A stretch of DNA of 64,000 bases, taken from assembly GCF_003334255.1 (NCBI RefSeq), contig NZ_QOWU01000001.1. The stretch is one strand, 5' to 3'. Made by a program: the position numbers and the translations under genes. Shown here in pieces: positions 36,899 to 44,221 of this stretch (position 1 is the stretch's first letter; the number at the start of each line of letters is the position of its first letter). A model generated the notes under the pieces. The model saw only the letters and a list, made by a program, of their open reading frames with translations, did no database searches and was not told the origin of the DNA. This stretch comes from Escherichia coli. GTDB lineage: Bacteria > Pseudomonadota > Gammaproteobacteria > Enterobacterales > Enterobacteriaceae.

Positions 36899-37836
36899 GC
36901 ATTCGTCCTCTCTGCAATACGCAGAACTGAACTACGGGCACGAGGGTTCTCAGCCACCTCTTCTTCGCCCGGCATTAACTTGCCTAGTGCTCGCAGCTGA
37001 CGGCCACCCAGTTTTTTGAGCTGCTCTTCAGTCATCGGTAACCCTGCCGGAACTTGCGGACCGCGGCTGTTTTCACGCATAAAACGTTTCACAATACGGT
37101 CTTCCAGCGAGTGGAAGCTGATGATCGAAAGCCGCCCACCCGGGGCCAGCACGTTGAGCGAGCTTTTTAGCGCCTGCTCTATCTCCTCCAGTTCACTGTT
37201 TACCCAAATGCGCACCGCCTGGAAGGTACGGGTCGCGGGATGTTTAAACTTATCTTTCACCGGCGTTGCAGCAGCCACGACTTCCGCCAGTTCTTTGGTG
37301 CGGGTCATCGGCTGTTCGCGGTTACGCTCGACAATGGCGCGGGCAATGCGTTTGGCAAAACGCTCTTCACCATAGGTTTTCAATACCCAGGCGATATCGG
37401 CTTCTTCTGCGGTTTGTAGCCATTCAGCGGCTGACTGCCCACGGGTTGGGTCCATACGCATGTCCAGCGGACCATCGCGCATAAAGGAAAAGCCACGTTC
37501 AGCATCATCAAGTTGCGGTGAAGAGACGCCAAGATCGAGGAGAATGCCGTCGATCTTGCCGATAAGATCGCGCTCGGCAACGTATTCGCCCAGCGCGGAG
37601 AAAGGTCCGTGGATGATGGAGAAGCGCGGATCATCAATAGTCTTCGCAACGGCGATAGCCTGCGGGTCGCGATCGATCGCCAGCAAACGCCCCTCTTCGC
37701 CAAGCTGCGAGAGGATCAGACGTGAGTGACCACCGCGACCAAAAGTCCCATCAATGTAGATGCCATCAGGACGGATATTGAGGCCATTAACGGCTTCATC
37801 CAGCAGCACCGTAGTATGTTTATAGTTTTCCATCAT
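36895..37836 (-). CDS. rsmH: 16S rRNA m4C1402 methyltransferase (313 aa)
   Basis: ORF 36895..37965 trimmed to the ATG at 37834..37836 ([38 protein letters not shown]). Confidence 0.93.
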
Positions 37837-37837
37837 T

Positions 37838-38296
37838 TTATAGAGACAAGTCCTGCAGTCGCTCCGATAAGTCTCCGGTAGCCAACTGCTCTGCGTCGAT
37901 ATCTTCCTTGACCTGTTGATGCCAGGTTGTTTCATCCCACAGCTCAAACTTGTTGAACTGTCCAACCAGCATCACTTCTTTTGTCAGCCCGGCATGTTGC
38001 CGCAGTACTGGCGCGATTAACAATCGACCTGCGCCATCCATCTGACATTCGCTGGCATGACCTAACAGTAGGCGCTGCACACGGCGCTCAACCGGGTTCA
38101 TGCTCGACAGACGCGATAATTTTTGCTCGATAATTTCCCATTCAGGCAGGGGGTAAAGCAGCAGGCACGGGTGATAAATGTCAATGGTGCAAACCATTTG
38201 ACCGGCAGCGTTCTCAAGCAGCTGTTCCCGATAACGGGTAGGCACTGATAAGCGCCCTTTGCTGTCGAGATTGACTAACGTTGCTCCCCGGAACAT
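37838..38296 (-). CDS. mraZ: transcriptional regulator MraZ (152 aa)
   Basis: ORF 37838..38332 trimmed to the ATG at 38294..38296 ([27 protein letters not shown]); first gene of the dcw cluster. Confidence 0.93.
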
Positions 38297-38315
38297 GCCA
38301 GCCTCACCCCTTATT

Positions 38316-38340
38316 CCCACTTTGCCCCACAATTTCCCAC
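38316..38340 (-). promoter_or_regulatory. MraZ operator: three direct GTGGG repeats at 10-bp spacing (Pmra region)
   Basis: Plus strand shows CCCAC at 38316-38320, 38326-38330 and 38336-38340, i.e. GTGGG x3 on the mraZ strand, 20-45 bp upstream of the start; matches the reported TGGGN direct-repeat operator. Confidence 0.75.
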
Positions 38341-38853
38341 TGAAAGGAGTTTACGGAGCTGAGGAAAAGCTTGTCAAGCCAGTCACAAGGCATACCGAGG
38401 TAAAAAACCCGATGTTTACGGCTAATATCAGCGTTGTTTATTTTACGTCCAACGTGCGAAGCAAATTAACGTTATGAATAGCTGTAAGAAAAAATCCCTC
38501 ATCGTCATCACCGTTTTAAAATGACTCACTATTTTCCACAGCAAATATAAAGTGTCAGTTTGCGACGCGAGCGGCATTTTAGGACATATCTTCCCCGGTT
38601 AACAGTCCTTGTTACGTCTGTGTGGCGCTTGATGCCAGCGGGTTTGCGCAAAAGCAAAGAAAAGTGTTTGTTAAATCGGCAATTCATCGCCGCATGTAAC
38701 AAAATAATGCAAAAACGCGCTGTCGATATCACTTAATTATTGTGAATTTCAGCTGGTGAGTTAATTAACGGGCGGGTTTAAAAGCATTTATCAATAATAG
38801 TCAGGAATAGTCTTATTTACTTTAAGCATATTGATGTCCAGTCCCGTACTCTA

Positions 38854-38888
38854 CGCGCCAGAGGGAAATTCACCTGGCGCGTATTTTT
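38854..38888 (+). terminator. stem-loop plus T-tract beside the cra stop, oriented for the plus strand
   Basis: CGCGCCAG agggaaattcac CTGGCGCG followed by TATTTTTGTT; the T-tract follows the hairpin only on the plus strand, so it would stop transcription antisense to cra / entering the Pmra region. Confidence 0.35.
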
Positions 38889-38897
38889 GTTCGCGGC

Positions 38898-39902
38898 TTA
38901 GCTACGGCTGAGCACGCCGCGGCGATAGAGATTACGTTTAATGCGCGTTAAACCAGGTTTTGGCTTACGCGGTTCGTCCAGGCTTGCCAGGACAATCTCC
39001 AGCACACGCTCTGCGACATCGCGGTGACGTTGAGCCACTGCCAGCACCGGACACTGTAAGAAGTCGAGCAGTTCGTTATCGCCAAAGGTGGCAATTGCCA
39101 GGTCAGAAGGCAGTTTGCCGTCGCGACGCAGCGTGACATCCATCACTCCTTGCAACAACGCAAACGACGTTGTGAACAGCGCCTGCGGCATCGGATGCGT
39201 TTCCAGCCATTTTTCGAATAACTGGGCAGCCGCCTCCCGCTCATAGCTGTTGGCATACAGGAAATGCACTTCGCGCGGATCATCTTTCCAGGCAGTACGG
39301 AAACCTTGTTCACGCAGGAAGCTGACAGAAAGCTCCGGTAGCGCACCAAGATAAAGCACCGTCTCGGCGGGAAACTTACGTAACTCTTCCGCCAGCATTT
39401 CGGCATCATCCTGATCGGCACCAACCACGCTGGTGAAGTGTTCACGATCGAGGGCGCGGTCCAGCGCGACAATCGGGAACGGGTCGTTAGCCCAGCGTTG
39501 ATAAAAAGGATGCTCAGGAGGCAACGACGTCGAAACAATAATGGCATCAACCTGACGCTGTAAAAGGTGCTCAATGCACCGCATTTCGTTGTCTGGCTGA
39601 TCTTCTGAGCAGGCAATCAGCAGTTGATAACCCCGTTGCCGCGCCTGGCGTTCAAGATAGTTAGCGATGCGGGTATAGCTGGTGTTCTCCAGATCGGGGA
39701 TCACAAGACCAATAGAACGTGTGCGTCCAGCACGAAGCCCAGCTGCCACGGCGTTCGGGTGGTAATTGTGCTCACGCACCACAGCCATGACTTTTTCAAC
39801 GGTTTTGTCGCTCACACGGTATTGCTTCGCTTTGCCGTTAATAACATAGCTTGCAGTGGTCCGCGACACTCCCGCCAGCCGAGCGATTTCATCCAGTTTC
39901 AC
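38898..39902 (-). CDS. cra: catabolite repressor/activator Cra (FruR), LacI family (334 aa), GTG start
   Basis: ORF track; [38 protein letters not shown] helix-turn-helix; start codon 39900..39902 is GTG. Confidence 0.96.
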
Positions 39903-40081
39903 AATTGCCCCTTGCGTAAAATGTAAAAACCATAGCCATTGTACTGGTATGGGTTAAATTCATTAACATCTAAGCGCAGAAAATTAACTGCGGCAACTGC
40001 TTTTATTCCAGGTTCCCACTGATTTCGCAAAAAAAGCCCAACGTGACATGTTGGGCTGTAAATTGCGCATTGAGATCATTC

Positions 40082-43562: not shown

Positions 43563-44158
43563 ACTTAACTCCACTGTCACACTTAACTCCCTTTCCCTTA
43601 TTGGAATGCAGAGAAATAATCCTGAAGAATATGATTTATCATGCATATAAAATAAGAAAAAGCAAAATGAGTAAAATTCGGAAAACATAAAGATACGGGT
43701 TCTGATAAAAACAGAATCCATTGCCGTGGAATGAGTCATTTACCACAGCATAATAATCCATAATGTTTTTGTTGCGAAAACAATCTAATCATAACTACCG
43801 CGAATACTCAATCATCTACAAAATGGATTAAATGTGCTTATTTAATAATTAATTTATATATTTAATGCATTAATTCTTAACATTAATTGATCAATAATAT
43901 TCACCAAATCAATATCAAAAAAAATCGCAAAACATATAATTCAATACAAATCATCAGGATAGGTTTTGCAACGCGTGCATTTTGTCCCCTTTTTCCTCGT
44001 TGATTAGATGCAAAAATTTATGCTGAAATATGTCAACCGATGAAAAGCGTCGGTAGTTAAGCAGAAATTAATATCGCTTACTTTAACCACCGCAGCACAA
44101 TTAGCTAATTTTACGGATGCAGAACTCACGCTGGCGGGACGTTTTTATTGCGTCAGGG
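43563..44158. promoter_or_regulatory. AT-rich leuO-leuL intergenic region (leuO promoter, H-NS-silenced)
   Basis: ~600 bp with long A/T runs (e.g. 43800..43930) and no credible ORF; known as an H-NS nucleation/silencing region between leuO and the leu operon. Confidence 0.6.
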
Positions 44159-44190
44159 TTGACATCCGTTTTTGTATCCAGTAACTCTAA
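44159..44190 (+). promoter_or_regulatory. leu operon promoter
   Basis: TTGACA at 44159..44164, 17-bp spacer, TAACTC at 44182..44187, ~35 bp upstream of leuL. Confidence 0.55.
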
Positions 44191-44221
44191 AAGCATATCG
44201 CATTCATCTGGAGCTGATTTA

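Follow-up and report, generated by a model that had tools for sequence, protein, structure and literature searches.

The question raised by this locus is what the DNA between cra and mraZ does. We analyzed it in a stretch of 64,000 nucleotides from Escherichia coli (contig NZ_QOWU01000001.1 of assembly GCF_003334255.1; "the window" denotes this whole stretch), in which the cell-division (dcw) region lies on the minus strand and rsmH, ftsL and ftsI follow mraZ. The original prediction, made from the sequence alone, had described a non-coding spacer of about 600 bp carrying three GTGGG repeats and an orphan hairpin, with the remaining 500 bp or so left without an assigned function. The extent of the spacer and the absence of genes were correct: it is 601 bp long, and the current RefSeq record of K-12 has no annotated feature inside it, listing yabR, ftsO and stfZ nearby. 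The claim that it is the longest gene-free stretch holds within the dcw cluster but not in the window, where the leuL-leuO gap of 659 bp (K-12 83709-84367, window about 43563-44221) exceeds it. To leave some 500 bp without a function was too pessimistic, as three published start sites of the sense strand and blocks conserved above the neutral level are found there. Overall, the spacer is probably a control region of the dcw cluster, made up of the main promoter, the MraZ sites, a hairpin at the end of cra and a series of conserved upstream elements.

The spacer is identical to positions 89033..89633 of K-12 MG1655 (0/601 differences), and K-12 coordinates are obtained by subtracting the window position from 127930, the plus strand of the window being the minus strand of K-12. 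It was found in 5424 out of 5426 complete E. coli genomes. Its G+C content is 0.40-0.44, against 0.52-0.58 in the flanking genes.

Conservation across the Enterobacteriaceae had been named as one check on the spacer, and it revealed blocks kept far above the neutral level. For this comparison 80 loci from different species of the family were fetched with MraZ as a query; cra is upstream of mraZ in every locus that extends far enough, and the spacer measures 556-733 bp. Identity to E. coli at four-fold degenerate sites served as the neutral baseline. At such sites of cra the mean identity is 0.45 and only 4% of them reach at least 0.9, while in the spacer 27% of positions are at 0.9 or above. 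These positions are not scattered. They form uninterrupted runs, 6-18 positions long, in which identity is 0.85 or above; these runs are listed in Table 1, and the last of them is followed by the segment with the mraZ promoter and the MraZ repeats. The box at 38815-38801 and the block at 38680-38660 are moderately conserved.

The part of the spacer next to mraZ is the part already known. The promoter scan identified Pmra as TTGACA-18-TAAACT (38377..38348, mraZ strand) with 10/12 matches. Its start was placed at K-12 89590 by Cappable-seq (score 27.2), at 89588 and 89589 by SMRT-Cappable-seq and at 89589 by a survey of 5′ ends, which also reports an identical 45-nt leader in Klebsiella. The starts at 89588-89590 correspond to window 38342-38340, that is, to the first base of the first GTGGG repeat, and the repeats therefore occupy +1 to +25. 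They are found at 38340-36, 38330-26 and 38320-16 on the mraZ strand (CCCAC on the plus strand), with the exact 10-bp phasing that had been described. The pattern GTGGG-N5-GTGGG-N5-GTGGG has a single match in the 64 kb of the window, while 0.01 would be expected from shuffled sequences, and the shorter form GTGG-N6-GTGG-N6-GTGG is present exactly once, at the same place, in 81/81 loci, 21-54 nt upstream of mraZ. In the 79-taxon alignment hardly any position varies from the -35 box through the third repeat.

The identification of the triple repeat as the MraZ autoregulatory operator is borne out by this position, as the repeats begin at the mapped start following the -10 box and are kept in all 81 loci. 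According to papers citing Eraso 2014, E. coli MraZ represses Pmra through a repeated sequence downstream of the -10 box. Judged by its sequence, the triple repeat is this known MraZ operator and the accepted picture is unchanged. As the E. coli Pmra system is described where Hara 1997 and Eraso 2014 are cited, the start lies 38-45 nt upstream of mraZ with three GTGGG repeats downstream of the -10 box; locus and elements are the same here, the sequence is identical to that of K-12 and no difference was seen. The leader is 44-46 nt by the genome-wide starts at 89588-89590 and 38 nt in the papers that cite the original work.

Other proteins have also been placed at this promoter. A probe covering 38398-38355, which overlaps the -35 box of Pmra, gave weak in vitro binding of PdhR in gel shift, with a 1.7-fold enrichment in chromatin immunoprecipitation (ChIP), and mraZ is among the CRP targets obtained by systematic evolution of ligands by exponential enrichment (SELEX). 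Inside the probe segment, at 38387-38372, is the sequence TGTGACTGGCTTGACA, which we take to be CRP-like. In the alignment this sequence is kept in Escherichia and Citrobacter only, and it was not retained as a candidate for a site shared across the family.

Upstream of Pmra, three conserved modules coincide with weak promoters of the sense strand. The Cappable-seq start sites used here comprise the rows for the K-12 plus strand, and four of them fall into the spacer: 89143 (score 6.2), 89237 (2.1), 89360 (9.4) and 89590 (27.2), the last being Pmra. The first of these starts lies 7 nt past TATTAT and adjoins the conserved box at 38801-38815. The second is immediately past the TTTTGTTACA block and 8 nt after TATTTT. 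The third, 89360 or window 38570 (log2 enrichment 4.9), belongs to a promoter that we call P2. Its -10 element TAAAAT, a 5/6 match, ends 6 nt before the start; from this element the start was predicted near 38568, and Cappable-seq gave 38570. Conservation here is distributed as in a promoter: after a short upstream element and a variable spacer of about 12 nt comes a conserved stretch that runs from the -10 region into the transcript, the first 30 transcribed bases being nearly invariant (38567-38543). The motif TAAAATG[CT][CT]G occurs once in 77/78 relatives. Between the -10 element and the start is the GC-rich sequence GCCGC; a GC-rich stretch at this place is typical of promoters sensitive to guanosine tetraphosphate (ppGpp) and DksA. 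From P2 to mraZ the leader would be 274 nt long, and P2 transcripts presumably reach mraZ, because curated Term-seq has no 3′ end mapped in the spacer and read-through from cra crosses it. The proposal to look for transcript ends and starts in this interval was answered in part: start sites are mapped, as is a 3′ end of cra by SMRT-Cappable-seq, but curated Term-seq has no end in the spacer.

The modules are also kept at nearly constant distances. From the -10 element of P2 to the TATTCAT run (within a nearly invariant block at 38461..38492, block 6) there are 99-102 bp, from that run to the -35 box of Pmra 101-104 bp, and from the -10 element of P2 to the -35 box of Pmra 201-206 bp. Further upstream, the box at 38808 is separated from TTTTGTTACA (block 2) by 99-112 bp in almost every taxon, but the distance from the cra stop codon to TTTTGTTACA spans 136 to 314 bp. 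Between TTTTGTTACA and the -10 element of P2 the distance is either 121-127 or 132-137 bp, and the shorter of these two classes is found in Escherichia and, separately, in Buttiauxella and Cedecea. Helical phasing was considered as a reading of these classes and was not adopted, since the classes follow clades and amount to about two independent changes of about 10 bp; two changes of approximately one helical turn are suggestive, as weak evidence for phasing. Within E. coli, the core from P2 to block 6 is at least 99% identical in 4251/5424 genomes and the whole spacer in 1362/5424. The core is single-copy in E. coli genomes, and a repeated element was rejected on these grounds.

At the other end of the spacer, the strong hairpin with a T-tract on the plus strand was present as predicted. 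Its arms, 38852-38861 and 38874-38883, are 10 nt each, 100% complementary and separated by 12 nt. The folding energy is -20.3 kcal/mol for the plus strand (z-score -4.2) and -19.3 kcal/mol for the minus strand, and no shuffled sequence folds as well; evaluated as a terminator of cra, the hairpin gave energies of -18.5 to -20 kcal/mol and z-scores of about -3.5 to -4.2. The stem begins 14 nt past the cra stop codon on the cra strand. Directly after the stem the plus strand has TTTTT (38884-38888), so that on the cra strand the corresponding AAAAA is ahead of the stem.

The original prediction had taken this hairpin for an orphan element antisense to cra. The transcript data point the other way. 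In SMRT-Cappable-seq, cra transcripts starting at K-12 87968 have a 3′ end at 89082, or window 38848, which is 4 nt past the stem: among 94 reads from this start, 20 end at 89082, 24 end up to 50 bp further on and 6 read through. A read-through transcript covering cra, mraZ, rsmH and ftsL is present in the list of the same study. In addition, a strong hairpin (-11 to -27 kcal/mol) follows the stop codon of cra at a short distance in nearly all of the 79 spacers compared within the Enterobacteriaceae; as a rule it begins not more than about 20 nt past the codon, and in Klebsiella and Raoultella 30-60 nt past it. The sequences of these hairpins are unrelated between genera. In many genera other than Escherichia a T-rich stretch follows the hairpin on the cra strand, and the arrangement with an A-run before and no T-run after the stem is confined to the Escherichia clade (E. 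coli, E. albertii and the two Escherichia sp. loci L024 and L025). The GC-rich 10-bp stem after a stop codon, the 3′ ends that SMRT-Cappable-seq places at its base and the flanking A-run and T-run resemble intrinsic and bidirectional terminators; the difference is that here the T-run sits opposite the gene, cra, whose transcripts are seen to end there. As there is no U-run on the cra strand, the hairpin may work like a cra terminator either by terminating weakly or by protecting the 3′ end from trimming.

An alternative is that the hairpin and T-run end an unannotated transcript of the plus strand, antisense to mraZ, that runs from the spacer towards the cra stop codon, i.e. an antisense or orphan non-coding RNA. 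On that strand the stem followed by TTTTTGTT has canonical terminator geometry at -20.3 kcal/mol, the orientation of the T-run is common to four loci of the Escherichia clade, and starts of an antisense transcript are unconstrained by the Cappable-seq rows, which cover the K-12 plus strand only. However, no promoter-like site of the plus strand was found by the scan of 38100-39100, and the stretch upstream on that strand, 38720-38850, is among the least conserved of the spacer. Curated Term-seq, covering three conditions and both strands, has no 3′ end at K-12 8903x-8909x; SMRT-Cappable-seq has no reverse-strand end in the interval of its M9 list and no coordinate beginning with 8904 in the supplement files, which is a weak test as the method selects long transcripts. 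Rfam gave no match for an antisense RNA in the spacer, and in genera other than Escherichia the T-run of the post-cra hairpin is often on the strand of cra. We consider the antisense reading quite unlikely. The hairpin likely belongs to cra and not to a hidden antisense gene, and its assignment to cra averts a likely risk of mis-annotation.

Some of the conserved blocks have no mapped start of their own. The palindrome-like box at 38801-38815 lies within the promoter spacer of the start at 38787, at -28 to -14 of the 89143 promoter. Published consensus sequences of the RcsB/RcsAB box are TaAGaatatTCcta and TN(G/A)GAN4TC(T/C)NA; compared with the latter, TAAGACTATTCCTG matches at all specified positions except the last A. 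The likeness consists of a core AGA-N4-TC(C/T) pseudo-palindrome, TAAGACTATTCC, that is kept across genera, and a further difference is one of position, as the box is found here at -28 to -14 of a weak promoter and not just upstream of a -35 element. RcsB acts elsewhere in the dcw cluster, at the ftsA/ftsZ promoters. The literature searched on RcsB contained no binding data for the box at 38801-38815, and searches for RcsB or ChIP together with mraZ returned nothing specific. By sequence the box may be regarded as a lead to RcsB, not as a claim of membership, and another regulator may be the real partner.

In the block GCCGATTTAACAAACACTTTT at 38660..38680 the sequence TAACAA and the TTGTTA of the block at 38693..38716 make up an inverted repeat. 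Block 6, which consists of TTTTCTTACA and TATTCATAACGTTAATTTGC separated by two nucleotides, probably binds a protein. The spacer has two copies of the nearly invariant 10-mer TTTT(G/C)TTACA, at 38704-38695 and 38492-38483, 212 bp apart, and a related TGTTAA is found at 38599-38604, at the position of the P2 -35 element, and in inverted orientation at about 38666-38675. These elements may be candidate sites of one protein.

The blocks were compared by eye with regulator consensus sequences. ArcA (TGTTA direct repeats at 11 bp) was rejected because only single half-sites are present. OmpR/RstA (GTTACA) and EvgA (TTCYTACA) showed half-site resemblance only, and for LexA, Cra, PurR and other LacI-type regulators, considered on account of the central AACGTT in block 6, the flanks differ. 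The sequence TGTGGAAAA at 38540-38532 on the mraZ strand fits the relaxed DnaA-box consensus TGTGNAWAA. It is found in E. coli only, not even in E. albertii, and is probably there by chance.

Could the conserved blocks act at the level of RNA or protein? P2 might produce a functional RNA, either a structured cis-acting leader for mraZ or a small RNA derived from the leader, with the blocks as RNA elements. The start at 89360 with its nearly invariant first 30 transcribed bases and the nearly fixed distances of P2 to Pmra and to mraZ across genera are consistent with this, and there is a precedent in the 268-nt dcw leader of Rhodobacter sphaeroides, which gives rise to the small RNA UpsM (PMC5089854). 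The likeness is that of a far-upstream promoter, with a leader of 268 nt there and of 274 nt here. In Rhodobacter, however, the far promoter is the only promoter of mraZ and a Rho-independent terminator releases an abundant, Hfq-dependent small RNA (PMC5089854), whereas P2 is weak, a strong Pmra is located downstream of it, and neither a terminator nor a covarying structure nor a stable RNA came to light. The search for a structured RNA by covariance, one of the checks put forward with the prediction, brought neither an Rfam family nor a covarying structure. RNAalifold on 77 leaders gave no helix from the leader start to Pmra, the covariation term being -0.61 and the number of compensatory pairs 0, and Rfam 15 searched over 37500-39500 with E up to 10 had nothing in the spacer. 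Ahead of the semi-conserved T-run at 38403-38411 single sequences did not fold consistently into a terminator, curated Term-seq has no 3′ end in the spacer, and the K-12 record, which includes the recent small RNAs FtsO and StfZ, has nothing annotated at the P2 leader. An RNA function of the P2 leader is therefore judged unlikely. Still less credible is a small protein, for which open frames do exist: those at 38259..38477 on the plus strand and 38529..38732 on the minus strand, and a hydrophobic frame through block 6 (MTMRDFFLQLFITLICFARWT) whose core, FFLQ(I/L)F(I/M)TLIC, is similar in many genera. The two listed frames cross poorly aligned, gap-rich regions, where gaps are not multiples of three and no frame is conserved, in agreement with the original remark that these entries had no support. 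As for the frame through block 6, an in-frame start codon is missing from many genera (Enterobacter, Buttiauxella, Escherichia sp. L024/L025), the frame is shifted by indels of 1-2 nt in the block or beside it, and its ends differ from genus to genus. Its third codon positions vary as little as the other two, indicating selection on nucleotides. The K-12 annotation, which goes down to the 14-aa YabR, has no gene in the spacer, and we regard a small protein as extremely improbable. Since the blocks are not an RNA family, a covarying RNA, a small protein or a repeat, they are best read as promoter and regulator sites acting at the DNA level.

A number of observations weigh against the spacer being a control region of this composition. 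The three upstream starts are weak, with scores of 2-9 where Pmra has 27, and a single deep data set is their source; a shallower survey of start sites and the SMRT-Cappable-seq operon list show only Pmra. P2 was not listed by the promoter scan, and its -35 element CTGTTA has only 3/6 matches, though the spacing is 18 bp and the element is conserved across genera. On the cra strand the 9 bases past the stem of the hairpin are GAGTACGGG, with 1 T, which is not a canonical intrinsic terminator; curated Term-seq shows no cra 3′ end under three growth conditions, and the 3′ ends seen at the hairpin may have arisen by trimming back to a stable stem. The box at 38801-38815 deviates from the RcsB consensus at the last A in every taxon and has one extra base before it, and in the comparison by eye no full regulator site matched any upstream block. 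Finally, neither P2 nor the hairpin is essential, because natural isolates carry insertion sequences (IS) there, IS5 in strain 4/4 and IS1 in strain 23CRST031; such insertions are rare. In strain 4/4 (locus L083 1671-2864) the IS5 interrupts P2 at CTAA 38582-38579, separating its -35 from its -10 element, and mraZ and cra are intact. In E. coli 23CRST031 (locus L084) an IS1 with a frameshifted transposase is located inside the hairpin, at about window 38851-38861.

Taken as a control region, the spacer could be envisaged to work as follows. The GC-rich hairpin would end most cra transcripts and let some continue into mraZ, rsmH and ftsL. Past it, an array of conserved modules of about 520 bp, at nearly fixed spacing, would supply three weak promoters directed towards mraZ (89143, 89237 and 89360). 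At Pmra the -35 box is overlapped by a weak PdhR site, reported in the literature, and by the CRP-like sequence. MraZ bound at +1 to +25 would block initiation at Pmra or escape from it, consistent with the published repression, and bound MraZ might in addition be a roadblock to cra read-through and to transcription initiated at P2 or another of the upstream promoters. The start-less blocks at 38461-38492 and 38660-38680, together with the box at 38801-38815, would most likely be regulator sites that tune the upstream promoters or Pmra.

A more far-reaching possibility, which we consider doubtful, is that the roughly 520 bp from 38820 to 38297 constitute one conserved nucleoprotein control module of the dcw cluster, in which proteins bend or wrap the DNA and couple P2 to Pmra. 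Its five elements are the box at 38808, TTTTGTTACA at 38700, P2 at 38605-38543, the sequence from TTTTCTTACA to GTTAATTTGC at 38492-38461, and Pmra with the operator; they are about 100-125 bp apart, and this spacing varies by no more than a few bp throughout the Enterobacteriaceae. P2 may in that case be an upstream promoter responsive to growth or stress, and the MraZ ring might be one of the wrapping proteins, as a diameter of 110-120 Å corresponds by calculation to a circumference of about 100 bp of DNA.

Table 1. Positions of genes, promoters, conserved elements and other features in and around the cra-mraZ spacer, in window coordinates; a dot denotes no strand assignment.
Feature	Position	Strand	Basis or detail
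cra	38898..39902	-	
mraZ	37838..38296	-	
cra-mraZ spacer	38297..38897		601 bp
T-run TTTTTGTT	38884..38891	+	after hairpin, strand opposite cra
Hairpin at cra transcript 3′ end (candidate leaky, non-canonical terminator)	38852..38883	-	fold, SMRT-Cappable-seq, comparison
Box TAAGACTATTCCTGA, palindrome-like, conserved	38801..38815	.	alignment and variants, 79 taxa; RcsB/RcsAB-like
Weak upstream promoter	38787..38799	-	-10 TATTAT 38799-38794, start 38787 (K-12 89143), score 6.2
Conserved block TTTGCATTATTTTGTTACA, TTTTGTTACA nearly invariant	38693..38716	-	conservation; start 38693 (K-12 89237), score 2.1
Conserved run TTTTGTTACA	38704-38695		
Block GCCGATTTAACAAACACTTTT, moderately conserved	38660..38680	.	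conservation, repeat search
P2 promoter	38543..38605	-	-35-like CTGTTA 38605-38600, -10 TAAAAT 38581-38576, start 38570 (K-12 89360)
Conserved run CTGTTA	38605-38600		
Conserved run TAAAATGCCG	38581-38572		
Conserved run CGTCGCAAACTGACACTT	38567-38550		
Conserved run ATATTT	38548-38543		
Block 6, TTTTCTTACA-N2-TATTCATAACGTTAATTTGC, nearly invariant	38461..38492	.	conservation; no mapped start, non-coding
Conserved run TTTTCTT	38492-38486		
Conserved run TATTCAT	38480-38474		
Conserved run CGTTAATTTGC	38471-38461		Pmra/operator segment comes next
PdhR gel-shift probe segment	38355..38398	.	overlaps Pmra -35 box
Pmra (mraZ1p)	38340..38377	-	-35 TTGACA 38377-38372, 18-bp spacer, -10 TAAACT 38353-38348, start 38340-38342
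MraZ operator, as assigned from the repeats	38316..38340	-	three GTGGG direct repeats, 10-bp phasing, +1 to +25 of Pmra
mraZ ribosome-binding site GGGGTGAGG and ATG start codon	38294..38309	-	sequence, alignment

Some further observations concern mraZ and the neighborhood of the spacer. In Buttiauxella, Cedecea, Kosakonia and others (loci L053-L081) the ribosome-binding site is set apart from the third MraZ repeat by an insertion of approximately 7-13 bp, located about 10-25 nt ahead of mraZ; the Pmra leader is longer in these taxa and the spacing of the upstream array is unchanged. The four-fold sites of mraZ are unusually conserved, with a mean identity of 0.60 and 26% reaching 0.9, compared with 0.45 and 4% in cra. 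This suggests an extra constraint at the nucleotide level inside mraZ (37838-38296). Also inside mraZ, position 89783 on the K-12 plus strand (window 38147) carries both a Term-seq 3′ end and a Cappable-seq start, which could be explained by transcript processing, by attenuation or by a promoter inside the gene, and further starts are at 89806 (window 38124) and 89701 (window 38229). At the 3′ end of mraZ, Rfam gave a weak osmY match (37894-37961, minus strand) of 19.9 bits, against a gathering threshold of 46.9, with E 0.13, most likely due to chance. On the far side of cra, some RefSeq records of E. coli (e.g. strain 4/4) place a 28-aa "fruR/shl operon leader peptide" directly ahead of cra; it falls into the ilvH-cra interval, window about 39903-40081, and is absent from the K-12 record.

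The genes at the start of the dcw cluster, among them ftsL, ftsI, the mur genes and ftsW, are transcribed from Pmra, which also contributes to the expression of ftsZ further downstream. The inputs known for this promoter are autorepression by MraZ and a weak PdhR site, and the upstream modules described here appear to be uncharacterised in the literature searched. About a quarter of a spacer that looked empty is conserved like coding sequence, and its blocks are held at fixed spacing, which makes them targets for experiment. P2 is likely a real promoter, kept from Escherichia to Cedecea and Buttiauxella, though a weak one seen in one deep data set. If the nucleoprotein module were true, it would add a new layer to the control of cell-division genes; short of that, the spacer is an ordinary, under-characterised regulatory region of moderate interest for the regulation of the dcw cluster.

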